64,000 nucleotides of DNA from an uncultured bacterium (GCA_964434115.1 CAYSSX010000003.1:268554-332553); one strand, 5' to 3'; positions 2 to 59,846 are shown, counted from the first letter of the stretch. Program-made: numbers and translations. The notes: generated by a model not told the origin, from the letters alone.

Positions 2-1015
2 GTCACAGGGAATCCGGTTTTGATGAAACCTGCCGAGCAGTCCGCGTTTCTGGCTTGGCATGTTTGTAAGATTTACCGTGGAGCCGGAATTCCGGAGGGG
101 GTTGTGCAGTTTTTGCCCGGCAGGGGAGAAGAAGCCGGAGACGCTTTGGTCCGCCACCCGGATGTTGCCGTGATTGCCTTTACCGGTTCGCGGGAAACAG
201 GGCTTTCGATTTTGTCCGCAGGCAATGAAAAAGCAGCTACGCAGAAGCTTGTTAAAAAATTTCTTGTGGAAATGGGCGGAAAAAACCCCGCGGTGGTGGA
301 TGCCTCCGCGGATTTTGATCTCGCGGTTCCTGCGGTTCTTCAATCGGCTTTCGGCTATGCGGGGCAGAAGTGTTCGGCGCTTTCCCGGCTTTATGTAGTG
401 GCGGAGGCTTATGATGAATTTTTGAAGCGGCTTGCCGGAGCGGCCCGGGAATTTTCTTTGGGATCCCCGCTTGATCCCGCGAGTTCTTTGGGTCCCGTGA
501 TTGATGAGGCGGCCCGGCAAAAAATCCAAAGTTATATCGATCTGGGCAAAAAGGAAGGGCGTGTTCTTTTTGAAGGAGTTCTTCCTCCCGGGCTGCAGGG
601 GCCTTACCTGGCGCCTATTATTTTTTCGGATCTTCCGGAAACCTCCCGGCTTTTGAGAGAAGAAATTTTTGGTCCGGTTTTGTGCGTGATCCGGGCGCGG
701 GATTTTACCGAGGCCTTAAAACTTGCAGGGAACAGTGAGTATGCCTTAACGGCCGGGGTGTACAGCCGGACGCCGTCGCATTTGGAGATGGCCCGCAGGG
801 CCGAGTTTGCCGGGAATCTTTACCTGAACCGGGGACAGACCGGTGCGGTTGTGGGCCGACAGCCTTTTGGCGGATTTAAACTTTCCGGAGGCGGCACCAA
901 GGCCGGCGGAGTGGACTATCTCAGGGAATTTTATTTTTCGAGAACTGTTTCGGAAAATGTCTCGCGCCACGGTTTTGCGCCGCTTCGCGATGAATCAGGA
1001 AAAGAAGTTAAATAA
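2..1015 (+). CDS. 1-pyrroline-5-carboxylate (L-glutamate gamma-semialdehyde) dehydrogenase, C-terminal ~330 aa; 5' end lies outside the window
   Basis: ALDH superfamily motifs: catalytic Glu in 'EMGGKNPAVVD' and catalytic Cys in 'GQKCSA'. The C-terminal 'QPFGGFKLSGGGTKAGGVDYL' matches the RocA/PruA-type P5C dehydrogenase signature (FGGFKMSGTDSKAGGPDYL). The ORF runs to the window edge in frame. Confidence 0.75.
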   Translation, partial: VTGNPVLMKPAEQSAFLAWHVCKIYRGAGIPEGVVQFLPGRGEEAGDALVRHPDVAVIAFTGSRETGLSILSAGNEKAATQKLVKKFLVEMGGKNPAVVDASADFDLAVPAVLQSAFGYAGQKCSALSRLYVVAEAYDEFLKRLAGAAREFSLGSPLDPASSLGPVIDEAARQKIQSYIDLGKKEGRVLFEGVLPPGLQGPYLAPIIFSDLPETSRLLREEIFGPVLCVIRARDFTEALKLAGNSEYALTAGVYSRTPSHLEMARRAEFAGNLYLNRGQTGAVVGRQPFGGFKLSGGGTKAGGVDYLREFYFSRTVSENVSRHGFAPLRDESGKEVK

Positions 1016-1766
1016 GGGAAAGTCCGCCGTCCGCGATAATCGTCTGCCCGACAATCCACGCGGATTCAGGCATGACAAGAAACTTGACGATTCTTGCAAG
1101 ATCTTCTGGCTGGGCAATGCGCCCGGCGGGTGTGCGTTCAATGACTTTTTGGCGAAAGGAAGCATAGTCCGGAAAGAATTTGAGGGCATCCGTTTCTACA
1201 AGCCCGCCTGAGACCCCGTTGACGCGTATTTTTTTAGAGGCAAGCTCCACGGCAAGATAGCGTACCAGGCTTTCCACCGCAGCCTTTGAAACTCCGATGG
1301 CCCCGTAATTAGGGATAAATTGGCGCGCCCCAAGGCTTGAAAGCGCTATGACGGAACCTCCTCCGCGGCTTTCCATGGAAGGCAGGGCTTTTTGAACCAG
1401 AAGAAGAAAGGCCTTGGCATTGATATCAAGCGAAAGGTCCCACTGATTGGCTTTGAGCTTATGGGTGGGTTTGAAGGCGCCCATGGCCGCGTTATGGATC
1501 AGAATATCAATACCGCCTAAAGCCTGAAGCCCCTGATCCACAAGCGGTCCCAAGGCATCAGGGTCGCCCACGTTGGCTTGTACCGTGACAACCTTTGAAC
1601 CCAGCTTTTGAAGGTCTTCGGCGGTCTTTTTAGCCGCGTCTTCATCCCGGACATAATTGAGAATAATGTCTGCGCCGGCCCCTGCGAGCTCCAGGGCAAT
1701 CGCCCTGCCAATCCCGCGTGAGGCGCCTGTAATAAGGGCGACTTTGTTACTTAAAGGCCTGTTCAT
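1008..1766 (-). CDS. SDR-family enoyl-[ACP] reductase, FabL-like (NADPH-dependent)
   Basis: N-terminal 'KVALITGASRGIGRAIA' Rossmann motif. The catalytic Tyr/Lys spacing is Y-x6-K ('NYGAIGVSKAAV'), typical of FabI/FabL enoyl reductases rather than the Y-x3-K of FabG ketoreductases. The C-terminal 'GGLVETDALKFFP...IADGGLSLI' resembles Bacillus FabL. The first ATG is at 1766; the ORF-track start at 1802 is a TTG. Confidence 0.65.
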   Translation of the reverse strand: MNRPLSNKVALITGASRGIGRAIALELAGAGADIILNYVRDEDAAKKTAEDLQKLGSKVVTVQANVGDPDALGPLVDQGLQALGGIDILIHNAAMGAFKPTHKLKANQWDLSLDINAKAFLLLVQKALPSMESRGGGSVIALSSLGARQFIPNYGAIGVSKAAVESLVRYLAVELASKKIRVNGVSGGLVETDALKFFPDYASFRQKVIERTPAGRIAQPEDLARIVKFLVMPESAWIVGQTIIADGGLSLI

Positions 1767-1831
1767 GGCCGAAAGCTTAGTAATGGAGGAGGTAAAAAGC
1801 AAACAAAAAAATATTCAGGCCTTAAGGGGTG

Positions 1832-1879: not shown

Positions 1880-2521
1880 ATGATGATCCGGCAATGGCAA
1901 AGAAAAATCCTGGATTTTCTAGTCCGGCACCACCCGGCTCTTGGCTTGGAAGAGCGGGCGGAAGGTTTTGTTCAGCTTTTTGAAAAGGAATTGCCGAAGG
2001 AAAGCCTGATTCTGGATATCGGCGGAGGGTGGGGATTTTATCATGCTCCTCTTCTTGCGAGGGGACACAAGCACCTTGTGGTGGATGTGATAAAACCCGG
2101 GGTTCAAAAATGTCCCGTTGTGATTTATGACGGCAAGCGCCTCCCGTTCCCGGATCAAAGTTTTGATGTCAGTCTTTTTATTACGGTACTGCATCATATT
2201 CCTGATCCTGAGGCCGTGATTCGTGAAGCACTGAGGGTCACCCGTAAGCGTGTGATTGTGGTGGAAGACCTTTATCACCACGCGGCTGGCCGCTGGTGGA
2301 CCGTCCTGCGGGACCAGATTCTCAATGTAGAGTTCTTCGGACACCCTAAGAACTTTAAGACACGTGAGCAGTGGACAAGCCTTTTTCAAGACCTGGGCGG
2401 CTCGTTGAAGTTTCAGACCGAGGTTCAGACCTGGCTTTCCGGATTCCAGATTTTAAACGGGGTTTTTGTTTTTGATGTGGCCGGCTGTAGAAGTCCCCGC
2501 GAAATTTTGCAGCACGTTTAG
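1880..2521 (+). CDS. Class I SAM-dependent methyltransferase
   Basis: 'LILDIGGGWGFY' glycine-rich SAM-binding motif I; 'VDVIK...YDGKRLPFPDQSFDVSLFITVLHHIPDPEAVIREALRVTRKRVIVVED' is a typical Methyltransf_11/25 core. Confidence 0.6.
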   Translation: MMIRQWQRKILDFLVRHHPALGLEERAEGFVQLFEKELPKESLILDIGGGWGFYHAPLLARGHKHLVVDVIKPGVQKCPVVIYDGKRLPFPDQSFDVSLFITVLHHIPDPEAVIREALRVTRKRVIVVEDLYHHAAGRWWTVLRDQILNVEFFGHPKNFKTREQWTSLFQDLGGSLKFQTEVQTWLSGFQILNGVFVFDVAGCRSPREILQHV

Positions 2522-2538: not shown

Positions 2539-2955
2539 ATGGAAGAGCTGCCGCAGACGGTGAACCTTGGCGTGCTTGGAAAAGCCCAAGCCGAGTATCT
2601 TCCTGACGGTAAAGGAATGAAAGCCTCGGGGCGTATTCCCGAAGACCTTGAATGCTTTCAGGATCATTTTCCAGGATTTCCGGTACTGCCGGGCGTTTTG
2701 GCTGTTGAGATTCAACGAAAACTGCGTGATTTTTTCTTTCAAACGAAGGCTCTTCCCGGAGCAGGGGATGAGTTTCGTGAAATAAGAGCTGTTAAATTCG
2801 CTTCTTTTTTAAGACCTGGTGATCCCTGGGAATTTCAGGGCGAAGTGAAAACCGGGCCGGGCGGAGAGAAGGTCTGGAAAGGCCGTCTTTCTTCCGGAGG
2901 CCGCCTTTCAGCGGCTTGTGAACTGGCGTTCGGCGCTCCTGCGCCGGCCGCCTAA
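2539..2955 (+). CDS. FabZ-like 3-hydroxyacyl-ACP dehydratase (hot-dog fold, catalytic His present)
   Basis: 'FQDHFPGFPVLPGVLAVEIQ' matches the FabZ active-site motif (HFPxxPVMPGVL...E). Size 138 aa. Confidence 0.7.
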   Translation: MEELPQTVNLGVLGKAQAEYLPDGKGMKASGRIPEDLECFQDHFPGFPVLPGVLAVEIQRKLRDFFFQTKALPGAGDEFREIRAVKFASFLRPGDPWEFQGEVKTGPGGEKVWKGRLSSGGRLSAACELAFGAPAPAA

Positions 2956-2966
2956 GAACGAGGAGG

Positions 2967-3374
2967 ATGATCGACCTCATGGATAAACAAATTTTTGAAA
3001 AAATTCAGGAAACTTTGGCAAGCGCGCTTGGCGTCGAAAAGACGGAAGTAACGCCGGAAGCATCGCTCACACGTGATCTCGGAGCGGAGTCTATTGACTT
3101 CATCGATATTATTTTCCGGCTTGAGAAGACTTTTGACATTAAGATCCCGAGCGGAGAACTTTTTCCCGGGAATGTTCTGAATAACGAGCGTTTTGTCTCG
3201 GCTGGCCGCGTGACCGATGCCGGGCTTGAGGAGCTGAAAATCCGGATGCCCTATCTTGATGTGGAAACCTTTTCCAAGGATCCCCAGATTTCCAAATTGG
3301 CTGAAGCCTTCACAGTCCAAATGGTGATTAACTATATCCGGGATCGTCTTGCCAAGGAAGCCCCCAAGGCCTGA
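2967..3374 (+). CDS. Acyl carrier protein with a ~45-aa insertion between helix II and helix IV
   Basis: 'TRDLGAESIDFIDIIFRLEKTF' carries the phosphopantetheine-attachment Ser motif (DSL-like 'AESID') followed by helix II. At 135 aa it is unusually long for an ACP. A GAGGAGG Shine-Dalgarno precedes it; the alternative ATG at 2979 cannot be excluded. Confidence 0.7.
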   Translation: MIDLMDKQIFEKIQETLASALGVEKTEVTPEASLTRDLGAESIDFIDIIFRLEKTFDIKIPSGELFPGNVLNNERFVSAGRVTDAGLEELKIRMPYLDVETFSKDPQISKLAEAFTVQMVINYIRDRLAKEAPKA

Positions 3375-3375
3375 G

Positions 3376-3759
3376 ATGAAACTCGCAGGTCTCGGCATCG
3401 ATGTGCTGTCGATTTCGAGGGCTGAAAAGTTTCTCGCTCACCGGACCCGGGAGTCTCTTTCGCGCGTCCTTTGCCCTTCCGAGCAAAAGTTTTTTGCCAA
3501 ACGTCTTTCCGTCCTTCAATTCGCCAAAATATTTACGGCCAAAGAAGCCTTCTTTAAGGCTTCACAAATGCCTCCTTCCGGACTTTATGGCTTTTCCGAG
3601 CTTGAGGTAAAGCTCTTGCCTCAGGAGCGTTTTGAGATAAAATGGCTTCGACCTGCGGGTCTGAAGAAAGGCCCCAAAGCCTGCGGCTGCCATTTTGTGA
3701 GCCCTGGATATGTTGGAGCGCAAGTCATTCTCTGGACGCCCTTTTCGGACGTCCTCTAA
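3376..3759 (+). CDS. acpS: Holo-[ACP] synthase (4'-phosphopantetheinyl transferase, AcpS type)
   Basis: N-terminal 'MKLAGLGIDVLSISRAEKF' matches the AcpS 'GIGxDIVEIxRI' motif. Size ~127 aa. The ATG is 1 nt after the ACP stop, so the two are translationally coupled. Confidence 0.7.
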   Translation: MKLAGLGIDVLSISRAEKFLAHRTRESLSRVLCPSEQKFFAKRLSVLQFAKIFTAKEAFFKASQMPPSGLYGFSELEVKLLPQERFEIKWLRPAGLKKGPKACGCHFVSPGYVGAQVILWTPFSDVL

Positions 3760-3800: not shown

Positions 3801-4259
3801 ATGCGATGGATTTTGCTTGATGAAGTTGTGGAAGTCCGCGAAGGGGATTCTGCCCTGACTCGCGCCCGTGTCCCCGCCGCCCCTTTCAGTGTTGAAGTCC
3901 TCCTTCTTGAAATGATGGCCCAGACGGGGGGGCTTCTTCTCGGCGCGTCCCATAATTTTCAAAACGACGTGGTTTTTGGGAAAGTCGAAAGCGCTGTTTT
4001 CCAGGGACCCTTTGCTCAAGGCGCTCCGCTTGAAATCTCTGCTGTATCCAAAGAAAGCCGCGAAGAAGGGGGCTGGTTCGAAGCCTGGGTCAGCTCTTCG
4101 GGAAAAGTGCTGGCTGAAAGCCGCTTCTTTCTTGCCAATGCAGGACGCTTGATGCCGGAGCAGAACGTCTCGGTGACTTTTCCGGAACCCTTTCTGCAGC
4201 ATTTCCGTGTCCGTGAAAAAGTAAAACGTGCCGCCGGTTCTTCTCAGGGTGACTTGTGA
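3801..4259 (+). CDS. Hot-dog fold dehydratase-like protein lacking the canonical catalytic His (probable partner subunit of the FabZ-like protein)
   Basis: 'VEVLLLEMMAQTGGLL' resembles the FabZ/FabA central helix, but the HxxxxPxxPG motif is replaced by 'RVPAAPFS'. Comparable to the ApeI/ApeP pair in aryl-polyene clusters. The stop overlaps the next gene's GTG start (GTGA). Confidence 0.5.
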   Translation: MRWILLDEVVEVREGDSALTRARVPAAPFSVEVLLLEMMAQTGGLLLGASHNFQNDVVFGKVESAVFQGPFAQGAPLEISAVSKESREEGGWFEAWVSSSGKVLAESRFFLANAGRLMPEQNVSVTFPEPFLQHFRVREKVKRAAGSSQGDL

Positions 4260-5527
4260 CCGGGCGCCGGCGTGTTGTGATTACAGGTCTGGGTGTTATC
4301 ACCGCCTGCGGGAACGGGTGGAAAGCTTACTGGGAAAATGCACGCCAGGGTCAAAGCGTTCTGGCTCCTTCACGGGAAATATTTCCAGGGGCACACCCCG
4401 TGCGCCTGCTCGGTGAAATTTCCGGATTCACTCCCGGAGAATTGATCAAGGCACGAAAGTCGATCAAGGTGATGTCCCGGGATATTCAATTTGCCGTCGC
4501 GGCAAGTTCTCTTGCCATGCAGGACGCTGGTCTTTCTGCAGAACAGCTGGAGCTTGACCGCTCGGGTGTCTCCATCGGCGCGGTTGCCCCGATCAATAAT
4601 GACCTGGATGAAATCGGAGCCGGAATTTTTAAAGGCTTTGATACTGAAGGGCGTTTGCACATGAGCCGCTTTGGCAAGGACGGTATTCCTGCGCTTTTTC
4701 CTCTCTGGTTCCTCAAATATATTCCCAACATGCCGGCCTGCCATGTTTCCATTGCGCATGGGTTCAGGGGGCCCAACAACACTCTGAGTACCTCGGTCGC
4801 GGCTGGCCTTCAGGCGCTTGGAGAGGCTGCCCGGGTGATTGAGCGCGATGACGCGGACTGCATGCTGGCCGGAGGAACGGATTCAGAAACCAACCCGCTC
4901 GGTCTGTCGCGTTTTGAAATGCTGGGGCTTTTATCCCGGCGAACCGAACTGACGGCGCCTTTTGACGCGGCCTCCGATGGATTATTTCCCGGCGAAGGCG
5001 CGGGCGTTCACGTTTTGGAAAGTCTTGCGCACGCCAAGGACCGGGGCGCGCGCATTTACGCGGAGATTACAGGCTATGGGTCTTCGGGAGACGGAGATCA
5101 TGACCCTCTGAACCCTCAAGATTTTTCAGGCCGCTTTCGGGCCATGAAACAAGCCTTGAAAGACGCCCAGCTTGAGTTCGCGGACGTGGATGCTGTTTTT
5201 GCCTGCGGATCCGGCATTCCCGCGCATGATCGATTGGAAGCGCAGGCGCTTAAAGCCTTGGGAGCGCCGAAGCTTGTTACTTTTTTGAAACCCGTGGCAG
5301 GGCATTTAATGTCCGCTTCGGGCGCGGTTGAAACAGCTGCCGCCTGCGCGGCCCTGCAGGAAGGCCTTTTGCCGCCGGCTGCGGGATTCAAAAAATTCGC
5401 GGAAGACTGTGAGCTGCCTTTGATTCCGGCCCCGAGAGACGCAGCGATTGAGACCGTCATGGTCAATGCGTTTGGTTTGAGCGGCCAGAATGTTTCGCTG
5501 ATTCTTAAAAAATTTTCCGGAGTTTAA
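4256..5527 (+). CDS. Beta-ketoacyl synthase family protein lacking the catalytic Cys and first His (chain-length-factor-like KS partner)
   Basis: Full-length FabF-like thiolase fold ('VVITGLGVITACGNGW', 'DADCMLAGG', 'KPVAGHLMSASGAVE'). At the active-site position FabF 'ATACTSG' reads 'STSVAAG' (Cys to Val). FabF 'NAHGTST' reads 'FACGSGI' (first His lost). The Lys and second His are retained. GTG start. Confidence 0.75.
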   Translation: MTGRRRVVITGLGVITACGNGWKAYWENARQGQSVLAPSREIFPGAHPVRLLGEISGFTPGELIKARKSIKVMSRDIQFAVAASSLAMQDAGLSAEQLELDRSGVSIGAVAPINNDLDEIGAGIFKGFDTEGRLHMSRFGKDGIPALFPLWFLKYIPNMPACHVSIAHGFRGPNNTLSTSVAAGLQALGEAARVIERDDADCMLAGGTDSETNPLGLSRFEMLGLLSRRTELTAPFDAASDGLFPGEGAGVHVLESLAHAKDRGARIYAEITGYGSSGDGDHDPLNPQDFSGRFRAMKQALKDAQLEFADVDAVFACGSGIPAHDRLEAQALKALGAPKLVTFLKPVAGHLMSASGAVETAAACAALQEGLLPPAAGFKKFAEDCELPLIPAPRDAAIETVMVNAFGLSGQNVSLILKKFSGV

Positions 5528-5528
5528 A

Positions 5529-6821
5529 GTGAATTCCAAACGAAGAGTCGTCATTACGGGGTTTGGATCCGTGTCGCCTTTGGGGCTTTCCACAAACGAG
5601 TTGTGGGAAAATCTTAAGGCTGGGCGTTCGGGGATTAAACGCATTTCACTTTTTGAAGCGGAAGGGTTTCCGGTTCAGATCGCCGGAGAAGTCAAAGGCT
5701 TTGACGCGGAAAAATTTTCCCGCGCAGATCCGGCTCTTCAGCATGCCGGAAGGGGAACACTCTTCGCGCTTCAGGCCGCCGAGGAAGCCGTGGCTATGTC
5801 CGGACTGAGCTTTAATCAGGGGAACCCGGAGAGGATTGGGATCTTTTTTGGAGCGGGAGATAACGGGAATAATTTTCCGGGATTTTGCCGTTCGCTTTAC
5901 GAAGCAAGAAATCCTTCCTCCGGGCATGTGGGCTTTACCGGATATATTGAGGCGGCTTCCAGAAATCTGAAAAGTTTTGAAGAACTGGGAATCCAGCCTT
6001 CCAGGACGCTCGCGCATTTGGCGGCGCGCTTTGGGGTTCAAGGCCCGGTCGCCAACACGATTACAGCTTGCGCAGCCTCTTCCCAGGCCATTGGGGAGGG
6101 CTCAGAATGGATTCGCCGGGGAGATGCGGATGTGGTGATTTCGGGCGGTACTCACGCGATGGTTTACCCGCTGGCTTTAACCGGATTCAGTCTTCTGACA
6201 GCCCTTTCTCCGAGAAACTCAGAACCAGAGCGAGCCTCCCGGCCTTTTGATAAAAACCGAGACGGATTTGTGATCGCGGAAGGTGCCGGCGTTGTCATTC
6301 TTGAAGAGCTGGAGCATGCCCTGAAGAGAAAAGCGCCCATTTTGGGGGAGCTTGCCGGTTATGGCTCCACGGGAGACGCTTACCGCATGACCGATATGGA
6401 TCCGGAAGGCAAAGGTGCCTGCCGGGCCATGGAGATAGCCCTTCGGAAAGGGGGGCTTTCCCCCTCAGAAATCGGCTATATTAACGCCCATGGAACGGCG
6501 ACCCAGGTCAATGATGCAATTGAAACACTTGTCATTAAGAAGGTTATGGGCGAGAATGCACCCCGGATTCCGGTTAGTTCCATCAAGTCCATGTTAGGGC
6601 ACATGATTGCCGCGGCCGGAGCTGTCGAGCTTATCGCGTGCCTTTTGGCCATCCGCGATCAGCTTCTTCCTCCGACCATCAATTACGAAGAGCCGGATCC
6701 TGCCTGTGATCTTGATTATGTACCGAATAAGGCGCGCGAAGCTAAAGTGGACGCCGCGCTTTCAAATTCTTTTGGTTTTGGCGGTCAAAATATCTGTTTG
6801 GCGGTGAAACGTTATGGCTGA
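5529..6821 (+). CDS. Beta-ketoacyl-[ACP] synthase (FabF/KAS II family, catalytically intact)
   Basis: Active-site Cys in 'ITACAASSQAIG'; His in 'NAHGTATQVND'; Lys and His in 'SIKSMLGHMIAAAGAVE'; C-terminal 'NSFGFGGQN'. GTG start 1 nt after the previous stop. Confidence 0.85.
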   Translation: MNSKRRVVITGFGSVSPLGLSTNELWENLKAGRSGIKRISLFEAEGFPVQIAGEVKGFDAEKFSRADPALQHAGRGTLFALQAAEEAVAMSGLSFNQGNPERIGIFFGAGDNGNNFPGFCRSLYEARNPSSGHVGFTGYIEAASRNLKSFEELGIQPSRTLAHLAARFGVQGPVANTITACAASSQAIGEGSEWIRRGDADVVISGGTHAMVYPLALTGFSLLTALSPRNSEPERASRPFDKNRDGFVIAEGAGVVILEELEHALKRKAPILGELAGYGSTGDAYRMTDMDPEGKGACRAMEIALRKGGLSPSEIGYINAHGTATQVNDAIETLVIKKVMGENAPRIPVSSIKSMLGHMIAAAGAVELIACLLAIRDQLLPPTINYEEPDPACDLDYVPNKAREAKVDAALSNSFGFGGQNICLAVKRYG

Positions 6822-7914
6822 AACAAAAAATCTTTTTATTACCGGTGTGACAGGGACCCTGGGCAAGGAATTGATCCGGGAACTTTTGCGCACAACCAAT
6901 GACCGTCTGGTGGTCCTGATCCGAGGGAAGAACCGTCTTTCCGCGGAAGACCGGCTCCGTAAAATTCTGAGTCTTCAAGGTTTGGAAGCGGAAGCAGGCC
7001 AGCGGATTCAAGCCGTTGAAGGCGACATTACCCAGCCTGGCTTTGGGCTTGCCCCGGAAGTCCGGGACCGCTTGATTCGTGAGACCGACCGGTTCTTCCA
7101 CATCGCGGCTTTGACGGCGCTGAATGGAAGCCGCGAAGATTGTTTCCGCATTAATCTTGGAGGAACTCTTGAGGCCTTGAAGCTTGCCTGGAGATTTTAC
7201 CGTGAAGGAAAATTGGAGCGGTTTTTTTACTTCAGCACGGCCTATGTCGCGGGAAGCCTTCAGACCTATTGTTCAAAAGAAAACAGCCTTCCTGAACAGC
7301 CGGCGCATGCGAACTTCTATGAGTCCAGCAAATATGAATCTGAAAAGCGCGTTCGCGAAGCCTTGGCAGAGGGGCTGCCCGTGACGATTTTCCGCCCCAG
7401 TATCGTGGTGGGCAATTCCGTGACTGGTGAGACCTCGGAATTTAATGTGATTTACCCGTTCCTTAAACTGTTTGCACACCGCATCATCACTGCGCTTCCT
7501 TCCCGCGTGGAGAATTCTTTCAATATTGTGCCGATCGACTTTGTGATCCGCGCCGCGCTTGAAATCGCTTCCCATGAGGACTCTGTCGGGAAAGGGTACC
7601 ACCTGGTCACCCAGAACCCCCCGACGATTGAGCTTCTTCTCGAAGTGGCCCGGCAGGAGTACCCTCAGATTCCGGCGATTGAAGTGATTGACCCTAAGGA
7701 TTTTGACCGGTCAGCGCTTTCGCCCCAGGAACAATTTGTTTATGACATGATGACGCCTTATTTGGGCTATCTAAACGATAATCTTACCTTTGAAACTACG
7801 CAGACAGAGGCCGCCCTGGCCGGAACAGGCGTGGAGTTTCCCAAAACCGACGGCGATTTTCTGCGGAGGCTTTTGGCGTATGCCGTGGATGCGGGTTACC
7901 TGGTGGTTTCCTAA
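6814..7914 (+). CDS. Stand-alone thioester reductase / fatty acyl-ACP(CoA) reductase (NAD-binding_4, 'male sterility' family)
   Basis: 'LFITGVTGTLGKELIREL' (TGxTGxLG Rossmann) and 'YESSKYESEK' (YxxxK) in the arrangement typical of NRPS/PKS terminal reductase domains and fatty acyl reductases. The start ATG overlaps the KS stop (ATGGCTGA). Confidence 0.7.
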   Translation: MAETKNLFITGVTGTLGKELIRELLRTTNDRLVVLIRGKNRLSAEDRLRKILSLQGLEAEAGQRIQAVEGDITQPGFGLAPEVRDRLIRETDRFFHIAALTALNGSREDCFRINLGGTLEALKLAWRFYREGKLERFFYFSTAYVAGSLQTYCSKENSLPEQPAHANFYESSKYESEKRVREALAEGLPVTIFRPSIVVGNSVTGETSEFNVIYPFLKLFAHRIITALPSRVENSFNIVPIDFVIRAALEIASHEDSVGKGYHLVTQNPPTIELLLEVARQEYPQIPAIEVIDPKDFDRSALSPQEQFVYDMMTPYLGYLNDNLTFETTQTEAALAGTGVEFPKTDGDFLRRLLAYAVDAGYLVVS

Positions 7915-9086
7915 CGCCAAACGGTTTGCTTGCGCGTGAAAGCCATGCGCGCGGCGTCCAGAAGTATTCCTGCGATGATGGCGGCCGCCAGAACGTGAAG
8001 CCATGCGAACCGGCGCGGCCCCCGGATAATTTCATACGCCTTCCAAGCCGTTGCCAGAATAATTCCTGCCGTAAACAGCGCCAAAGCCCATGACGTTTGA
8101 GGATACGCCCCGCCCGCGGGAAACCCTGTCAGCATGAGACCGATCCAGACAAAAGGGATGACGGAAAACAAAACGAGGCTTGAAGCCCTTGCCAGCAAGG
8201 GCAGTGTTTTGCGCTCAAATGAATGGAGGTAAATCCTTCTCCATCCCCGCCAGATGGCCCCGAAAGAATCGTACATCCTTGTTCCAAAGAAATCTGTTCC
8301 AATAGCCACCGCGCAGGGGAGCCCCGCCTCTTTGGCTTTTTTAAAGAGCGCGAAGTCTTCCAGAAACTCGGCCTTTACGGCAGCGTGCCCGCCCGTTTTT
8401 TCATACACCGACCGGTGCATCAGCAGATACTGTCCGTTTCCAAAATAAATTTTTTGCTCGGGGTCATTCACTTTTTCAACAGGAAACCATAGGCCCATCA
8501 AAGCCATGGCAACCGGCTGCAGGACTATTTCCCAAAAACCGCTGGCAAGGCACCGGGGAAGAAGTGTCAGCATCAAGGCCCCTCTTTTTTCCATGAGCCC
8601 GAGCGAGGCCCGGAGCGATTCCGGCTCATGCCGCGTGTCTGCATCCGTGAAAAGAAGCCATTCGCCTTGCGCGTAAGGGGCCCCAAAGGCAAGCGCGTGA
8701 TTTTTTCCGGTCCAGCCCGCAGGGGCAGGGGGGGAATTCAAGTAACTCAGCCGGGAGGCCCCTCGATCCGTCCCAGGATTCCCGGCGGGGCGTGCACCCA
8801 AAGCGAGGAGAATTTCTTCCGTACGGTCCGTCGAGTTGTCATTGATGACGAGGATTTCAAAATCCGGGTAATCGATAGCCAGCAGGCCTTCAACGCACAT
8901 CCGGATATTGCTTTCTTCGTTTTTTGCGGGAACGAGAATCGAAACTTTATTCCGCCCTCCCGAAAGAATGCCGTTACTTAATCGTGGCGCCCGGAAAAGA
9001 GTGACAAGGGCGCAGACGGAGCGGTTGATCCACACGGCCGCTGATGTCAAAAAGAAAATGAGGACGGGGTCAGGAGTTATTTTCAT
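7911..9086 (-). CDS. Membrane-anchored family 2 glycosyltransferase
   Basis: 'VSILVPAKNEESNI...ILVINDNSTDRTEEIL' GT-A N-terminal motif; 'LLFTDADTRHEP' DxD motif; hydrophobic C-terminal segments. Convergent with the reductase gene; the stops overlap by 4 nt. Confidence 0.7.
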   Translation of the reverse strand: MKITPDPVLIFFLTSAAVWINRSVCALVTLFRAPRLSNGILSGGRNKVSILVPAKNEESNIRMCVEGLLAIDYPDFEILVINDNSTDRTEEILLALGARPAGNPGTDRGASRLSYLNSPPAPAGWTGKNHALAFGAPYAQGEWLLFTDADTRHEPESLRASLGLMEKRGALMLTLLPRCLASGFWEIVLQPVAMALMGLWFPVEKVNDPEQKIYFGNGQYLLMHRSVYEKTGGHAAVKAEFLEDFALFKKAKEAGLPCAVAIGTDFFGTRMYDSFGAIWRGWRRIYLHSFERKTLPLLARASSLVLFSVIPFVWIGLMLTGFPAGGAYPQTSWALALFTAGIILATAWKAYEIIRGPRRFAWLHVLAAAIIAGILLDAARMAFTRKQTVWR

Positions 9087-9166: not shown

Positions 9167-11506
9167 TTGTTAAAATATTTTTCCATGCCGCACCTATTTC
9201 GAAGACTTGCCCAGATTGTTCTTGTCAGCCGCTGGCCCCTTTTGCTGGGGCTTGGGATCATCACCCTTATCTGCGGATTTAAAGCGGTTCAGCTTCAGAT
9301 TGACCCCACGGTTGAGATGATGCTTGCCAAAAACACCAAAGAATACCGCGATTACGACGCCTACCGCACGACTTACGGGAGCGACTCGATTATTTTGGCG
9401 GCGATGGCCACGGACAATGTCTTTACGCCAACCAACCTTGCACTTTTAAAACGCGTCACGGAAGCCTGTCTGAAGTTTGAACAAGTGGAAAGCGTTCTCA
9501 GTCTTCCCGTAGTTTCCGATATCCGCCATAAAAGGTTCGGCGTGAAAATTGTTCCCGCCCTTGAAGGGGTGATGGAGGGGAGCCGCCCGATGGATGAGGC
9601 TCGCAGCGATATCCTCTCGAACGAACTTTATCTTAACAATCTCGTTTCCCATGACGGAAAGACCGCGAATTTAATCATTCGCGTGAAAACCTCCAAGGAC
9701 AAGGAAAGCGGGGTTCTGATCGAACATCTGAAGGCCATTTTCCGGACCGAGGAAAAACACGGCGGGGTTAAATTTTATATGGCAGGCGCCCCCGTCGAGC
9801 AGTATGAATTTGTAAGGCTTATCCGTAAAGACCAGTTCACTTTTGTCCCGATGATTACGGCGTTTTTAATCGCGGCGACCTTTTTATTTTACCGGAGCAT
9901 TCCGTGCGTCATCCTGGCCCTTTCCAAAGTCTTTGTCACGCTGGCCTGGACTTTTGGTTCTATTGCCTTCTTTGGGCAGGAACTGAATCTCGTCACCTCT
10001 CTTCTTGCGCCGGTTCTTATGATCATCACGGTGGTGAACTCCATTCATTTTATGAATTTGTTTTTTGATATCCGCGCGCATCATCCCAGCCTGCGGATGT
10101 CCGTTGTTTTGACCATGGAACAGCTGGGGCTTCCGAGCCTGCTCACGCACGCCACGACGGTGCTGGGTTTTCTTTCCTTGGCCTTGGACAGTGTTCCCGC
10201 GATCCGGAGTTTTGGTCTCTTTGCCGCGCTTGGGTCTTTTTACTCTTTTCTGGTTGCGATGCTTTTGACACCCGTACTGCTTTTGTCCCTTCCCTACAGA
10301 GCGAGACCCCGTGATTTCAATGACCGGCATTTTTTTAACAAGATCCTTGTGGGGTTCCTTGAGAAGCTTGAACACCGGTGGAAGTGGGTGATTCTGGCCA
10401 TTGTTGTTGTTTCCGTGGCTTTTTCGGCGGCGGGAATTAAAAAACTCAATGTGGATACGAATATCGTCAAGCAGCTGAAGCCCGATTCTCCGCTCGCCGT
10501 TTCTACGCGATTCATCGACGAGCATATTTTGGGCGTTTACACGCTGGGGTTTGTTCTCAGAACGCGTGACGGTTCGACGATCGTGAATCAGGAAACCCTG
10601 AAGCGCCTGGATGCTTTTAAAACCTTTCTTGAACAGATGCCTGAAATTTCAAACGTGAACAGCATCACGACGCTGATTAAAAGAATTCACCTTGCCCGCA
10701 AGCAGAGTCCCGAGGCCTACGTCATTCCGGGACAGGTAGACTTGGAAAGATACTTTAAAGGGATTACCGCTGACGATAACCCTGAAACCTGGAGCATGAT
10801 GTCGCGGGATTTGAAGGAGGTCCGCCTTCAGGCCCAGATGAAAGCGGTCGGAACCCGGGAGGGGAAGCTTGTCGAAAAAAAGGCCCGCGCCTATATGCAG
10901 AAAAAACTTTCGCCCTATTTTGAGACCCTGATGACGGGCCATGTGGTGCTTCTCGGCAGAATGGCTGAGAATCTTGTCCATTCGCAGATGATGAGTTTTG
11001 GTTTTGCCTTTGCGTCTATTTTTCTGGTCATTGCCTTGATCTTCCGCTCTCTTAAAATGGGGCTCCTTGCGGCAGTGCCCAACATTGTTCCGATTCTTTT
11101 GACCTATGGCATTATGGGATTCCTTCATGTTGAGCTTTCCACCTCAACCGCGATGATCTCAAGTATTGTGCTGGGACTTGTCGTAGACTCCTCTATCCGG
11201 TTTTTGCACCGCTTCCAGCTGGAGTTTGAAAAAAGAGGCCATTATCTTCAGGCGCTGCACCATACCTACCGGAATACGGGGCAAGCCATGTTCATTTCAA
11301 CCTTGATTCTGGTGGTGGGGTTTGGAACCAGTGTTTTCGCCGGTTTCCGTCCCACGATTCAGTTTGGGGTTTTGACAAGCCTAACTATTTTTCTATCCAT
11401 GATTTGCACACTTCTCGTTCTTCCGGTTCTGGTGGTGATGACCCGGCCTTTTGGCCGGCAGCGGCTTTTCCGGAAGCAGAAAGAAGGGGCCGACCCGTTT
11501 CGTTGA
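9167..11506 (+). CDS. MMPL-family RND-type lipid exporter
   Basis: 779 aa with two hydrophobic blocks, each followed by a large soluble loop (MMPL/HpnN-like architecture). TTG start at 9167 with GAGGA 6 nt upstream; the alternative ATG is at 9185. Confidence 0.8.
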   Translation: MLKYFSMPHLFRRLAQIVLVSRWPLLLGLGIITLICGFKAVQLQIDPTVEMMLAKNTKEYRDYDAYRTTYGSDSIILAAMATDNVFTPTNLALLKRVTEACLKFEQVESVLSLPVVSDIRHKRFGVKIVPALEGVMEGSRPMDEARSDILSNELYLNNLVSHDGKTANLIIRVKTSKDKESGVLIEHLKAIFRTEEKHGGVKFYMAGAPVEQYEFVRLIRKDQFTFVPMITAFLIAATFLFYRSIPCVILALSKVFVTLAWTFGSIAFFGQELNLVTSLLAPVLMIITVVNSIHFMNLFFDIRAHHPSLRMSVVLTMEQLGLPSLLTHATTVLGFLSLALDSVPAIRSFGLFAALGSFYSFLVAMLLTPVLLLSLPYRARPRDFNDRHFFNKILVGFLEKLEHRWKWVILAIVVVSVAFSAAGIKKLNVDTNIVKQLKPDSPLAVSTRFIDEHILGVYTLGFVLRTRDGSTIVNQETLKRLDAFKTFLEQMPEISNVNSITTLIKRIHLARKQSPEAYVIPGQVDLERYFKGITADDNPETWSMMSRDLKEVRLQAQMKAVGTREGKLVEKKARAYMQKKLSPYFETLMTGHVVLLGRMAENLVHSQMMSFGFAFASIFLVIALIFRSLKMGLLAAVPNIVPILLTYGIMGFLHVELSTSTAMISSIVLGLVVDSSIRFLHRFQLEFEKRGHYLQALHHTYRNTGQAMFISTLILVVGFGTSVFAGFRPTIQFGVLTSLTIFLSMICTLLVLPVLVVMTRPFGRQRLFRKQKEGADPFR

Positions 11507-11583
11507 CAGTTTCTCCCTCCCCGTACTATAATCCCCTCTATTTATTTTTCTTAAGTCGTTAAAAATCAAGGGTCTAGGAACTT

Positions 11584-12999
11584 ATGGAAAAACTGCTTAC
11601 CCCGTACGGCGGGCGTTTTCTGCCTAAAGAAGCCGTCTCCTCCATCATCGAAAATTTTCAAGAAGGCCGGAAGGTCCGAACCGCGGGCCGGCTGATGGCC
11701 AAACGTATTATGGGTAAAAGCGCTTTTTTTGATTTAAAGGACGAGTTTGCGCGGATGCAGCTTTATGTGAAAAAGGATATTGTCGGTGATGCTCTTTTTG
11801 AGGAGATTCTGGGGCTTTCGCTTGGGGATATTGCGGGCATTGAAGGCGAGCTGTTTGTTTCCAAGGCCGGTGAAAAAACTATCCGGGTTGAAAAGCTGAC
11901 GCTTCTTTCCAAAATTGTCCGGACGCTACCGGAAAAGTGGCATGGCCTGAAAGATGTTGAAACCCGCTACCGGCATCGCTACGTGGATCTGATTGTCAAT
12001 GATGATGTCCGTAAGACGTTTAAGGCGCGCAGCCAAATTCTCCGGGATATCCGGCGTTTCCTTGATGAACGCGGTTTCATGGAAGTGGAAACGCCCATGA
12101 TGCAGCCGATTCCCGGGGGCGCCCGCGCGAAGCCTTTCGAGACGCACCACAATTCTTTAGGGATTGACCTCTACTTGCGCGTGGCCCCTGAACTTTACTT
12201 AAAGCGTCTTCTTGTGGGCGGGTTTGAAAAGGTTTATGAGATCAACCGCAATTTCCGCAACGAAGGCATTTCGGTCCGGCACAACCCTGAGTTCACGATG
12301 CTGGAACTCTATGAGGCTTATGCTGATTACCATGACATGATGGCCATTACCGAAGAGCTGATCGCGGGGCTGGTGTTTGCCCTTCATGGGACTTATGAAA
12401 TTCCTTTTGGGGATAAAACGATCAATTACAAAACCCCCTGGAAGAGAATCAGTTTTTATGACGCGCTCAAGGAAAGCACAGGGATGGATTTCCGGACCTG
12501 CGATGTTCGTAAGGCGGCTCGCGAGCTGCACGTGCCTTTTTCAGAAAAGGACGAAGACATTGATGTGCTCAATGAGGTCTTCGGCGAAAAAGTCGAGGCT
12601 TCGCTTTGGGATCCGACTTTTGTGATTGATTACCCGACAGTCATGACCCCCTTGGCCAAGGCCAAGGACGAGGACCCTTCTCTGGTCTACCGGTTTGAAC
12701 TTTTTGTGGCGCGCATGGAAATCGCCAATGCCTTTTCAGAGCTGAACGATCCGCATGTTCAGCGGCAGCGCCTTGAAGAACAGCGCAAAATGATTGGCGA
12801 GCATAAGGAAATCGATGAAGACTTTCTTACGGCCCTTGAGTATGCCATGCCTTCCGCGGGCGGTCTTGGGATCGGAATTGACCGCCTTGTGATGTTGTTA
12901 ACCAATCAAAGCTCGATCCGGGACGTTATTTTATTCCCCCAGATGAAACCCGAATCGGGAGCCCCTAAAAAAATCGAAAACGAAGAATCGGTTTCGTAA
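11584..12999 (+). CDS. lysS: Lysine--tRNA ligase (class II)
   Basis: '[23 protein letters not shown]' OK-fold anticodon-binding region; '[16 protein letters not shown]' motif 2; '[16 protein letters not shown]' motif 3. Confidence 0.9.
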
Positions 13000-13030: not shown

Positions 13031-14332
13031 ATGGGTTTTGAATCCTTTATCGCGATGAAACATTTACGTGCCCGCCGCCAGACAGGGTTTATTTCCCTCA
13101 TCACGGTCATTTCCGTGCTGGGTGTGGGGGTGGGAGTCATGGCCCTTATCGTGGTGATGGCCGTGATGAGCGGTTTTGACCGGGAGCTCAAATCAAAGAT
13201 CGTGAATGTCCAGCCGCATCTGCGCATCGAGAAAGTCGGCGGTCTGGACAACGTGGATGCTGAAATTGAAAAAATCAAAGAGCATGGCATTCAGGGAATT
13301 AAAACACTTTCCGCCTACATCGAAGGGCAGGGGATTCTCCGCTCCAGCGCAAACGCGACAGGTGTTCTGGTGAAGGGGATGGATACTGAGCGCGAAGACA
13401 TGGGCGTCTATCAGCAGCACATGATTTTCGGAATGCTGGACCTGACTTCCCAGCAGGTCTCGACCACGCACCGGAAAATGCTCTTTTTCAAAGAAACGAG
13501 AGAGGAAAGCCTGGGGGGGGTTGTGATCGGGGAAACCCTTGCCGACCTTCTTCAGGTCAGAATCGGTGATCGCGTGGATTTGATTTCACCCTTCAAGGAT
13601 CCGGGCAATAACCTTCTGGCGGTCCGCGCGGAAAGCCGGACTTTTCTTGTCAAAGGAATTTTCCGCGTGGGGATGAATGACTTTGACACCTCGCTTGCGC
13701 TCATCAGTCTTCACGAGGCCCAGAATGTTTACCGGATGGGAACCCGGGTTTCGGGGATCAGCCTGCGGTTCAACGACGTGGATGACGCCCAGAAGTGGAA
13801 ATATTTTCTGCAGAGTTACTTTACACCGGACTACTATCTCCGGTCATGGTACGACATGAACCATAATTTTTTTCAGGCCCTGAAAGTGGAGAAGTCGGTG
13901 ATGACCATTCTTCTCGCGCTTATCATTCTTGTCGCGGCATTCAATATTGTGTCCACCTTGATCATGATCGTCATGGAGAAGACCAAGGACATCGGTATCC
14001 TGAGAGCACTCGGGGCCACTAGCGCGAGCATCCGCCGGATTTTTATGATGGAAGGGTTCAGTGTCGGAGTTTTTGGCGTGGCCTTTGGTGCTGGCGCCGG
14101 TCTGCTGTTGGCTTTTAACCTTAATCCGGTGTCGGATTTTCTTAAACAAACCACGGGGCTTGAGGTTTTTCCAAGCGACATTTACTTCTTTGACAAAATT
14201 CCCGCGGAAGTCCATGCCCCCGATGTGGTGGTTGTAGTGGCCTTTGCCATGCTTGCTTCGATCCTTGCCGGTATTTATCCCGCCGGACGTGCGGCTGCGC
14301 TGGATCCCGTGGAGGCCCTGCGTTATGAGTAG
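13031..14332 (+). CDS. lolE: Lipoprotein-releasing system permease (LolC/LolE, FtsX/MacB family)
   Basis: N-terminal 'AMKHLRARRQTGFISLITVISVLGVGVGVMALIVVMAVMSGF' is a typical LolC/E start; large periplasmic domain; C-terminal FtsX-like 4-TM region. Confidence 0.8.
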   Translation: MGFESFIAMKHLRARRQTGFISLITVISVLGVGVGVMALIVVMAVMSGFDRELKSKIVNVQPHLRIEKVGGLDNVDAEIEKIKEHGIQGIKTLSAYIEGQGILRSSANATGVLVKGMDTEREDMGVYQQHMIFGMLDLTSQQVSTTHRKMLFFKETREESLGGVVIGETLADLLQVRIGDRVDLISPFKDPGNNLLAVRAESRTFLVKGIFRVGMNDFDTSLALISLHEAQNVYRMGTRVSGISLRFNDVDDAQKWKYFLQSYFTPDYYLRSWYDMNHNFFQALKVEKSVMTILLALIILVAAFNIVSTLIMIVMEKTKDIGILRALGATSASIRRIFMMEGFSVGVFGVAFGAGAGLLLAFNLNPVSDFLKQTTGLEVFPSDIYFFDKIPAEVHAPDVVVVVAFAMLASILAGIYPAGRAAALDPVEALRYE

Positions 14333-15038
14333 CCAGCCGCGCGAACTTTTCAGTGTGTTCAATGTGACGAGAGAATACGACATGCCGACCGGAACCCTTT
14401 GTGTTTTGAAAGGGATCAATTTTTCTCTTGCGCGGGGGGATATGGCGTTTGTCGTAGGCCGTTCCGGTTCCGGTAAATCGACTTTTCTTCACCTGCTGGG
14501 CGGCTTGGATCAGCCGAGCGGCGGAAAAATTCTTTTTGAAGGCGAAGATATGACCGAGATGAGCGAAAAGGAGCTTTCCCGGATCCGTAACCGCCGCATT
14601 GGACTGGTCTTTCAGTTTTATCATCTTTTGCCGGAACTCACGCTGTTTGAAAATGTCCTGCTTCCGAGTTTGATCGCGGGAAAGCCCAACCCTAAATGGG
14701 CTAAAGAATGTTTGAGAAAAGTAAAACTGTACAGCCGCGCTGAGCATTATCCGGCGGAGTTGTCGGGCGGAGAGAAACAGAGGGCTGCGATGGCCCGGGC
14801 GCTCGTCAACCGACCGTCCGTGGTGCTCTGCGATGAACCGACGGGAAACCTTGATGTGGAGACTGCCGCGTCCGTCGTGTCTTTGATGGAAGATTTGAAC
14901 CGGCGCGAGGGGATCGCCTTTGTGGTGGTCACGCATGACGAATCCATGGCTGCGCGGCATGAACAGGTTTACCGGATCACGGACGGTGTCCTGCTTCGAC
15001 GGGACACAAGACAAGTCAATATTTCACGCATTTCTTAA
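14325..15038 (+). CDS. lolD: Lipoprotein-releasing system ATP-binding protein
   Basis: Walker A 'GRSGSGKST', ABC signature 'LSGGEKQRAAMARAL', Walker B 'VVLCDEPTGNLD'. ATG at 14325 overlaps the lolE stop. Confidence 0.85.
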   Translation: MSSQPRELFSVFNVTREYDMPTGTLCVLKGINFSLARGDMAFVVGRSGSGKSTFLHLLGGLDQPSGGKILFEGEDMTEMSEKELSRIRNRRIGLVFQFYHLLPELTLFENVLLPSLIAGKPNPKWAKECLRKVKLYSRAEHYPAELSGGEKQRAAMARALVNRPSVVLCDEPTGNLDVETAASVVSLMEDLNRREGIAFVVVTHDESMAARHEQVYRITDGVLLRRDTRQVNISRIS

Positions 15039-16042: not shown

Positions 16043-16561
16043 ATGATTTGTAATATTTGCGGTAATCAGGAAGCAACCCTTCATCTGACCGAGATTGTTC
16101 AGGATCAGATGCTGGAAGTCCATTTGTGCGAGGCCTGTGCCCAGGAGAAAGGGACTGATTTTAAAACCCACTTTCAACTAGGGGATCTTTTGGGCGGGCT
16201 TTCAGCGGCCGCGGGCAGCCCGCTTCCAGGGACAGCGGTTCCTCCGGCCGCGCAGTGCACGGAGTGCGGTATGACCTATGAGGAGTTTGCGAAAACAGGG
16301 CGGTTAGGCTGCGCGTCCTGCTATCAAGGGCTTTCTAAAATTCTGCTGCCTTTGATCAAACGTGTGCAGCGCTCCACGCACCACGTAGGAAAACAGCCGG
16401 CGCGCCTTTCGACCCCGGAAAAAGCGGCCTACGACCTAAGGCTTCTGCAGGAACGCTTGCGTAAAAGCGTCGAACTGGAAGCTTTTGAAGATGCGGCCCG
16501 GATCCGTGATGAAATCAAAGAGATGGAACATAAAACCCAAAAGGGTAAAAAGAAAAAATGA
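16043..16561 (+). CDS. mcsA: McsA (activator of protein arginine kinase; zinc-finger plus UVR domain)
   Basis: 'MICNICGNQEATLHLTEI...EVHLCEACAQEKG' and 'CTECGMTYEEFAKTGRLGCASCYQ' zinc-finger pairs plus the C-terminal UVR motif 'LEAFEDAARIRDEIKEME'. Collinear with B. subtilis McsA. Confidence 0.8.
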   Translation: MICNICGNQEATLHLTEIVQDQMLEVHLCEACAQEKGTDFKTHFQLGDLLGGLSAAAGSPLPGTAVPPAAQCTECGMTYEEFAKTGRLGCASCYQGLSKILLPLIKRVQRSTHHVGKQPARLSTPEKAAYDLRLLQERLRKSVELEAFEDAARIRDEIKEMEHKTQKGKKKK

Positions 16562-17622: not shown

Positions 17623-17728
17623 GTAGTCAATGGTTTGCCGGAAAAGTCGAAAATTAGAGGATGGCAGTAACAGGGTTAGTTTAACGAAATTATCATATCC
17701 GATATTGTTTTAACCGCGGAGGTTTGCG

Positions 17729-21121: not shown

Positions 21122-21165
21122 GCAAGGATTTTTTTGCCCCCGGAAGACGGAAACGCTGAAAAATT

Positions 21166-21930: not shown

Positions 21931-21962
21931 ACCTTTTTAGATCAAAGAACAGGCAGGGAGCA

Positions 21963-59581: not shown

Positions 59582-59725
59582 AAACTGCGTCCGAAGCATT
59601 TTTTGAAGTTTGTGCTCCTATTGTCTTTCCGCGTTGCAATCCAGCCTGCGAACCTCTAAAATCCGCTCATTCCAGAGCAGATCCCGCACTCGAAATTTGT
59701 TTTAGGAAAGCCATTGAAACCTTTT

Positions 59726-59799
59726 GGGCCCGTAGCTCAGTCGGTTAGAGCAGGCGACTCATAATCGCTTGGTCCCTGGTTCAAGTCCAGGCGGGCCCA
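59726..59799 (+). tRNA. tRNA with CAT anticodon (Met or lysidine-modified Ile2)
   Basis: Cloverleaf: 7-bp acceptor stem gggcccg/cgggccc, D-arm gctc-agtcggtt-agagc, anticodon stem-loop ggcga-ctCATaa-tcgct, T-arm cctgg-ttcaagt-ccagg, discriminator A. CCA is not encoded. A T-run follows. Confidence 0.85.
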
Positions 59800-59846
59800 G
59801 CTTTTTTCTCAAGTTTTGGGACGTGAAGCCGTAACTTTAACACCCT

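Follow-up and report, generated by a model that had tools for sequence, protein, structure and literature searches.

In a stretch of 64,000 nucleotides from an uncultured bacterium (GCA_964434115.1 CAYSSX010000003.1:268554-332553; the whole stretch is called the window below), two adjoining genes for ketosynthases (KS) probably encode the subunits of one heterodimeric condensing enzyme composed of two FabF paralogues, one of which resembles a chain-length factor (CLF). Where polyketides and aryl polyenes are made, heterodimers of an active and an inactive ketosynthase determine how long the chain becomes. The first gene product, KS1 (4256..5527, + strand, 423 aa, GTG start), is a full-length protein of the FabF fold that has lost the catalytic triad and is the proposed CLF-like subunit. 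The second, KS2 (5529..6821, + strand, 430 aa, GTG start), is a FabF-like ketosynthase with intact Cys/His/Lys/His and is the proposed catalytic subunit. The positions, the 1-nt spacing and the GTG starts had been given before by a reading based on the DNA alone (the sequence-only reading) and match the table of open reading frames (ORFs). The nucleotide between the KS1 stop and the KS2 start (...GGAGTTTAA A GTG...) is preceded by a Shine-Dalgarno-like GGAG, which lies 6 nt ahead of the KS2 start. The GTG of KS1 shares bases with the stop codon of the preceding ORF, DH2 (GTGA), and the ATG of a thioester reductase gene (TR, position 6814) lies inside the 3' end of KS2, giving an overlap of 8 nt. 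As all borders in the four-gene string DH2-KS1-KS2-TR overlap or are spaced by 1 nt, its genes are taken to be translationally coupled.

The active-site residues were assigned with a HMMER alignment to the FabF of T. thermophilus and a MAFFT alignment to that of E. coli, which were concordant. At the position of the nucleophile KS1 reads 'LSTSVAAG' where FabF has 'ATACTSG', so that Val181 replaces the Cys, and at the position of the first His it reads 'FACGSGI' instead of 'NAHGTST', which places Cys317 there. Lys345 and His350 are retained ('LKPVAGH' compared with 'TKSMTGH' in FabF). KS2 has the complete catalytic set in the motifs 'ITACAAS', 'NAHGTAT' and 'IKSMLGH'. The sequence-only reading had arrived at the same residues by eye, that is, the loss of the Cys and the first His from KS1, the preservation of Lys and His in its second half-site and a full Cys/His/His set in KS2. 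It had left room for a multiple alignment with a Cys at the KS1 nucleophile position, where MAFFT puts Val181. The KS1 protein is identical in an independent assembly (Logan SRR16481187), and its nearest relative, at 77% identity, likewise has Val-Cys-Lys-His at the four positions. This excludes a sequencing error. Two ketoacyl-synthase Pfam domains were detected in both proteins and each aligns end to end with FabF structures, KS1 over residues 5-419 (HMMER). KS1 and KS2 of one locus share just 33% identity.

Relatives of KS1 were collected in two ways. A protein search over 5.8 billion proteins provided a list of the 120 best, which apart from the identical protein are 47-78% identical to KS1; those that are named belong mostly to metagenome-assembled genomes (MAGs) of Omnitrophota. 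Among these 120 the position of the Cys is occupied by Ser (88), Ala (28), Val (2), Thr (1) or Cys (1), the position of the first His mostly by Asn, and the Lys is invariant. In addition, at least 579 loci qualified as candidates for a KS1 relative in a tblastn scan of one genome per species. The best 80, mostly from Omnitrophota and Planctomycetota, were analysed, and a Cys-less protein was present in 80/80. Wherever both genes occurred (53/53 loci), the Cys-less KS was located immediately upstream of a KS with Cys-His-Lys-His.

Together with one Omnitrophota metagenome contig the best 80 loci were sorted into three tiers. Tier 1, to which Omnitrophota and the window belong, has the order short-chain dehydrogenase/reductase (SDR, - strand), methyltransferase, the dehydratase DH1, acyl carrier protein (ACP), AcpS, DH2, KS1, KS2, TR, family 2 glycosyltransferase (GT2, - strand) and MMPL transporter. 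In tier 2, where MAGs of Planctomycetia are joined by some Omnitrophota and by a cultured planctomycete, Kolteria novifilia Pan216, the order is GT2 (-), SDR (-), DH1, SDR (+), ACP, DH2, KS1 and KS2. Tier 3 consists of stand-alone Planctomycetota genes with Asp or Glu at the position of the Cys. DH2 directly precedes KS1 in both tier 1 and tier 2.

A neighbour-joining tree was constructed from 66 sequences (425 columns, 100 bootstraps) with few references, none of them an aromatic CLF, Iga12 or AntE. All Cys-less proteins, including the solo ones from Planctomycetota, formed a single clade (bootstrap 100/100) and all partner KS proteins another (96/100); the sister grouping of the two clades is weak (37/100). 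Over 1378 locus pairs the pairwise-distance matrices of KS1 and KS2 correlated with r = 0.95, and KS1 was the faster-evolving one (mean p-distance 0.52 versus 0.40 for KS2). The pair is ancient and was passed on as a single unit. FabF paralogues in which Asp or Glu takes the place of Cys163 have been described in the planctomycete Rhodopirellula baltica (PMC2649909), and these are the substitutions of the solo branch within the KS1 clade.

The conservation profile of the KS1 family (n = 81) shows where the protein is constrained. The best conserved window of 15 aa is 149-163 ('PLWFLKYIPNMPACH'), with 94% conservation where the family mean is 56%. It aligns to 'SPFFVPSTIVNMVAG' of FabF, a segment of the dimer interface, and in the same alignment to the helix-loop-helix region of amxFabFmut that bears Phe135 and Val139. 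Together with amxFabF2 this anammox protein forms the heterodimer that is the closest studied analogue of KS1 and KS2. The two are full-length FabF paralogues, the inactive one with a Val at the position of the Cys; each is inactive alone, and the obligate heterodimer, which has been crystallised, decarboxylates malonyl-ACP and forms acetoacetyl-ACP (bioRxiv 10.64898/2026.05.19.726425). Phe135 and Val139 of amxFabFmut line the tunnel of the active partner, their mutants shift the preference for substrate length, and without the partner this helix-loop-helix element shows disorder in the inactive subunit's crystal (bioRxiv 10.64898/2026.05.19.726425). Conservation of KS1 is only 31-36% at positions 181 (S/A/V/T/E/D; never Gln), 317 (N/C/S/A/H/T) and 350 (H/N/F/Q/Y), while it is 99% at Lys345. 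A conserved block that matches a tunnel-lining segment, in combination with drifting catalytic positions, is expected of a non-catalytic subunit that shapes the pocket of its partner. The AlphaFold model of KS1 has the complete FabF fold with a predicted local distance difference test score (pLDDT) of 86.6, and confidence dips in the helix-loop-helix insertion only. Among solved structures the model comes closest to canonical FabFs (template-modelling score 0.85), and each of its first 35 structural neighbours is a FabF.

This pattern of constraint argues against KS1 being a pseudogene as well as against its being an independent enzyme. That KS1 is a decaying duplicate without function would agree with the missing catalytic residues and with an evolution faster than that of KS2. 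It is contradicted by the intact reading frame, by the occurrence of a Cys-less protein in all of the best 80 of at least 579 candidate loci, by a fully supported clade that extends over two phyla, by the 94% block and by the confidently predicted full fold, and is scarcely credible. Alternatively, KS1 could be an enzyme itself, a homodimer that acts beside KS2 as a malonyl-ACP decarboxylase, priming enzyme or acyltransferase by means of its Lys and His and Cys317, or of the Ser that most relatives have at the nucleophile position. The near-invariance of Lys345, the presence of His350 in the window protein, the Ser and Asn that most homologues carry instead of the Cys and the first His, the report that Cys-to-Ser mutants of KS are still functional (Rattray 2009, PMC2649909) and the position of Cys317, which judged from the FabF fold adjoins the nucleophile, all fit such a role. 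However, few positions of the family vary as much as 181, 317 and 350, unlike those of a catalytic site. Decarboxylation by FabF is reported to require both His residues (PMC2649909), and the corresponding subunit of the anammox pair has no activity by itself. An enzyme activity of KS1 on its own is therefore considered unlikely.

In the heterodimer that is favoured instead, KS2 would take up the acyl chain on its Cys/His/His site and condense it with malonyl-ACP. KS1, unable to condense, would provide the second half of the dimer: its extended helix-loop-helix segment would close the acyl tunnel of KS2, and it would contribute part of the surface on which the ACP docks. The reaction would take place in a cluster resembling fatty-acid synthesis (FAS) of type II, on a dedicated ACP of 130 aa that is primed by an AcpS encoded in the same cluster.

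The left edge of this cluster is formed by a divergently transcribed FabL-like SDR (1008..1802, - strand), probably an enoyl-ACP reductase, that scores 308.9 bits against the NCBIfam FabL model (cut-off 328). Its best match in the PDB is B. subtilis FabL (3oic, 241.7 bits; the next 153), and it was found in most tier-1 loci. An aldehyde dehydrogenase gene further to the left (20-1015, +) was considered as a member of the cluster and rejected: its product is a dehydrogenase of L-glutamate gamma-semialdehyde (P5C), and most related loci do not have it. The fragment of this gene at the window edge is common only to the locus of the closest relative. A class I SAM-dependent methyltransferase follows the SDR (1880..2521, +; Pfam Methyltransf_11/23/25), the position of which is conserved in tier-1 loci. 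It matches named NCBIfam families weakly, among them BioC with 23 bits. BioC is a malonyl-ACP O-methyltransferase, and a BioC-like capping of the malonyl primer would be speculation without support in the cluster. The next gene, DH1 (2539..2955, +; Pfam FabA and the ApeI-like PF22818), encodes a FabZ/ApeI-like hot-dog dehydratase in which the catalytic His is kept (DHFPGFP).

The ACP (2967..3374, + strand, gene call from 2979; PP-binding domain at residues 11-66) has about 130 aa instead of the usual 78 or so, owing to an insertion of about 50 aa between helix II/III and helix IV, the latter aligning at residues 115-128 only. The insertion is predicted to form a beta-hairpin and three short helices (AlphaFold2 pLDDT 85). 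It is kept in the loci of Omnitrophota and Planctomycetota; 1147 homologues of the ACP were found, those listed being 69-90% identical. Among the ACPs in the PDB none spans the insertion, the matches being restricted to the four-helix core. Downstream of the ACP lies the gene for an AcpS-type 4'-phosphopantetheinyl transferase (3349..3759, +, gene call from 3376; Pfam ACPS), which scores below the cut-off of all NCBIfam holo-ACP synthase models. DH2 (3801..4259, +) is a divergent FabZ-like hot-dog protein with weak FabZ matches. It has an Arg at the position of the catalytic His of FabZ (ARVP instead of GHFP) and retains the Glu; its relatives have H, K, R, Q or L at this position. DH2 is possibly a non-catalytic partner of DH1, which suggests a pair of active and inactive dehydratases that parallels the KS pair.

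On the other side of the KS genes, the stand-alone TR (6814..7914, +) was recognised by Pfam NAD_binding_4 (184.9 bits) and, below the cut-off, by TIGR01746 (156.8 bits). Its best PDB matches are the terminal reductase of MxaA (116.5 bits) and the R domain of a type I polyketide synthase (PKS). It is followed by the GT2 (7911..9086, - strand; Pfam Glycos_transf_2), which resembles glycosyltransferases with a lipid acceptor (HpnB, CruG). The GT2 scores 132 bits against NCBIfam HpnB and 109 bits against CruG, both far under the cut-off, and is conserved in tier 1. The right edge of the cluster is an RND transporter of the MMPL/HAE3 family (9167..11506, +), a probable exporter (Pfam MMPL; TIGR00921 HAE3 208 bits, below cut-off) that is present in 13 related loci, namely that of the nearest KS1 relative and twelve others of tier 1. 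The gene content can be arranged in a pathway. DH1, perhaps together with DH2, and the FabL-like reductase would process the chains with a ketoreductase probably borrowed from housekeeping FAS; release by TR would then yield an aldehyde or alcohol, GT2 would add a sugar, and the MMPL transporter would carry the product out. This is the simplest interpretation of the domain content and suggests an exported fatty-alcohol glycoside.

The border on the right is marked by the promoter of lysS. A sigma-70 consensus promoter with 12/12 matches (TTGACA, 18 nt, TATAAT) is present at 11503-11532 (+), just upstream of lysS (11584-12999). The lysS gene is also found downstream of the cluster in the Omnitrophota contig L002.

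Genes such as these could also belong to the main machinery of fatty-acid elongation, KS2 being the housekeeping FabF, the 130-aa ACP and AcpS being housekeeping proteins as well, and KS1 tuning the bulk chain length. An AcpS-type transferase and a FabL-type enoyl reductase in the cluster, surroundings of core genes (lysS, lolCDE-like, mla and aminoacyl-tRNA synthetases) without a shift in composition, the recurrence of lysS downstream in the window and the Omnitrophota contig, and the high identity among the listed ACP homologues are consistent with this idea. KS2 also passes the broader FabF subfamily model PRK07314 (462.9 bits; cut-off 387). Under the fabF equivalog model TIGR03150 (cut-off 493.75), however, both KS2 (478.4) and KS1 (299.4) fall below. 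FabD, FabH and FabG were not found in the tier-1 cluster, and the translational coupling of KS2 to TR and its linkage to GT2 and MMPL point to a product that is released and modified. Furthermore, of the five fabB/F paralogues in R. baltica only two are without the active-site Cys (PMC2649909). On the evidence of the 64 kb, a housekeeping role of the cluster is accordingly regarded as improbable.

Several points have to be weighed against a heterodimer of KS1 and KS2 that serves such a pathway. The complex, its role in chain length and its product are deduced from genes. Most members of the KS1 family have Ser-Asn-Lys-His, which leaves room for decarboxylation or acyl transfer in the relatives of KS1. 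Charge asymmetry drives heterodimerisation in the anammox case (bioRxiv 10.64898/2026.05.19.726425), but not even for the two anammox proteins did net charges calculated from sequence show the published asymmetry, which makes this measure uninformative. Solo Cys-less KS genes without an adjoining partner occur in many Planctomycetota (L051-L082), no partner KS being present in the contig part that was fetched (at most 10 kb on each side). An example is L076 (9974-11266; Planctomicrobium sp. SH668), in which the solo KS lies among the housekeeping genes RecG, Sua5/LMW phosphatase and UbiD-like. The solo proteins retain the 'PLW..LPNMPAC' block. The fatty-alcohol glycoside is a guess from domain content. 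Finally, neither a ketoreductase nor a malonyl transferase nor a starter KS is present in the cluster of this lineage, so that the proposed route depends on housekeeping enzymes.

The sequence-only reading had attributed to the pair the architecture of the type II PKS KS-alpha/CLF and of the ApeO/ApeC heterodimers and not that of a housekeeping FabF. What holds is an inactive, CLF-like FabF paralogue next to an intact KS, distinct from a housekeeping FabF, as indicated by the invariable pairing, the Cys-less clade, the co-divergence and the constraint on the interface segment. The two architectures that were named do not fit in detail with regard to order, size, affiliation and accessory genes. 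Like the PKS pairs of actinorhodin (1TQY), AntD/E (6SMP) and ishigamide (Iga11/Iga12, 6KXD), KS1 and KS2 are encoded by adjoining, co-translated genes for a KS and a KS-like partner without the nucleophile Cys. In aromatic CLFs the Cys is usually replaced by Gln, whereas KS1 has a Val. A kinship with type II PKS is not borne out either, since KS1 is closer to canonical FabFs (237 bits) than to the actinorhodin KS (159) or CLF (141), at least by scores alone. In type II PKS bulky residues of the partner at the tunnel fix the chain length and the CLF gene usually comes after that of the KS (PMC9006962); in the window the inactive member comes first. Cyclase or aromatase domains were not detected in domain scans of the cluster region, and the FabL-like enoyl reductase implies a reduced chain, unlike that of an aromatic PKS.

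With the aryl-polyene system of E. coli CFT073 (ApeO/ApeC, c1189/c1202; PDB 6QSP) the window shares the principle of a KS with an inactive partner in a heterodimer, as well as an ApeI-like dehydratase, a methyltransferase, a GT2 and an MMPL exporter in the cluster. ApeC, however, is a protein of 240 aa that corresponds to one thiolase half, and in E. coli CFT073 some 12 genes separate it from ApeO (PMC8358021), whereas KS1 has 423 aa and adjoins KS2. Membership of the aryl-polyene family was rejected, as phmmer against the CFT073 Ape proteins gave generic similarity only. KS2 matched ApeO with 143 bits and the MMPL transporter matched ApeM with 27 bits, and the GT2 and methyltransferase of the window had no match among these proteins. 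Genes like ApeH, ApeD, ApeK, ApeR or LolA/LolB were not found in 1-11.6 kb.

For the comparison with the anammox pair, sequences were taken from two frameshifted long-read contigs (L083 and L084) and, for the proteins of Brocadia fulgida, from PDB alignments. Chains B and C of PDB 9s5h (B. fulgida) were confirmed as the anammox pair, and the Kuenenia pair is kuste3605/3606. Both contigs encode, in this order, an ACP, a FabZ, the active KS, the inactive KS, a phytoene-dehydrogenase-like protein and a B12 radical SAM protein. The likeness to the window is considerable: a full-length inactive subunit of the FabF fold, structurally nearest to canonical FabF, with a Val at the Cys and a mutated His, lies 1 nt from an intact FabF paralogue, with an ACP and a FabZ-like gene upstream, in a host from the same broad group of phyla. 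The order of the two KS genes is reversed, however. In the anammox loci amxFabF2 precedes amxFabFmut (L083 6766-9241 and L084 5859-8325, the 1-nt gap being seen in L084), whereas in the window the inactive member comes first. The preprint places amxFabFmut 'just upstream' of amxFabF2 (bioRxiv 10.64898/2026.05.19.726425), which is either loose wording or the opposite orientation convention.

Other differences concern the proteins and their neighbours. In the tree amxFabFmut falls outside the KS1 clade, and against a hidden Markov model (HMM) of the KS1 family it scores 297 bits, less than canonical FabFs (386-400). An insertion of about 15 aa in the helix-loop-helix of both KS1 and KS2 is found neither in FabF nor in the anammox proteins. 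The amxACP has 90 aa and no insertion, in contrast to the 130 aa of the ACP in the window, and amxFabZ keeps its catalytic His. The phytoene-dehydrogenase-like and B12 radical SAM genes are missing from the window, which instead has TR, GT2, MMPL, methyltransferase and AcpS. When DH2 and the ACP were searched against the PDB, the anammox FabZ and ACP were not singled out as relatives. Because of the reversed order, the different accessory genes, the position in the tree and the lower HMM score, the catalytic losses in the two lineages look independent. It has to be considered whether the pair is nevertheless orthologous to the anammox ladderane 'Cluster I' and the cluster makes ladderane-like lipids. 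The shared kind of pair with its Val and 1-nt gap and the upstream ACP and FabZ-like genes agree with this, as would antiSMASH 'ladderane' clusters that were reported, unexplained, in Omnitrophota and Planctomycetota (bioRxiv 10.1101/2022.12.20.521206), should they correspond to the window cluster. The differences in gene order and content and in ACP and FabZ speak against orthology, and tree and HMM score contradict it, which makes this explanation very unlikely.

An active/inactive KS heterodimer has been known in the putative anammox ladderane pathway since 2026 (bioRxiv 10.64898/2026.05.19.726425), and KS1/KS2 represent a separate and far more widespread lineage of the same solution. They leave the understanding of the ketosynthase mechanism unchanged. 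What they add is a compact, conserved cluster in which the pair is joined to an unusual ACP and to a module for reductive release, glycosylation and export, and with it a specific candidate for an envelope lipid of Omnitrophota that is still uncharacterised; nearly all that is known of this phylum comes from MAGs. The related cluster in the cultured planctomycete K. novifilia Pan216 is accessible to genetics and lipidomics. A wider scenario is put forward tentatively and is open to considerable doubt: the Cys-less clade may have arisen once, before or across the split of Omnitrophota and Planctomycetota and independently of the PKS CLFs, ApeC and amxFabFmut, as one more separate invention of a ketosynthase heterodimer with an active and an inactive member, and together with the 130-aa ACP, TR, GT2 and MMPL might make an exported fatty-alcohol glycolipid that is a core component of the Omnitrophota envelope. 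Such clusters may then account for the 'ladderane' calls in phyla outside the anammox bacteria.

A catalogue of 2023 that distinguishes 'non-actinobacterial KS/CLF' and 'type II FAS-FAS' pairs lists KS-CLF-like pairs from Candidatus Omnitrophica and Planctomycetes but does not analyse them further (PMC10132072). Both this catalogue and the paper on the R. baltica paralogues (PMC2649909) offer lists or alignments and no functional, cluster-level or evolutionary analysis; their accessions may overlap with the KS1 family. In the literature nothing was found under the PDB code 9S5H, on Omnitrophota ketosynthases or on the combination of a KS/CLF with a thioester reductase and a glycosyltransferase.

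The remaining genes of the window are housekeeping genes. Downstream of lysS these include genes for envelope and stress functions, namely a LolC/E-like permease with an ABC ATPase (13031-15038), an operon for McsA-like, McsB (arginine kinase) and ClpC proteins (16043-20200) and MlaE/MlaF/MlaD-like genes (20306-22763). Near the right end of the window a tRNA-Met (CAT) is located at 59725-59801 (+) and a class A RNase P RNA at 61834-62175 (+; 205.8 bits).

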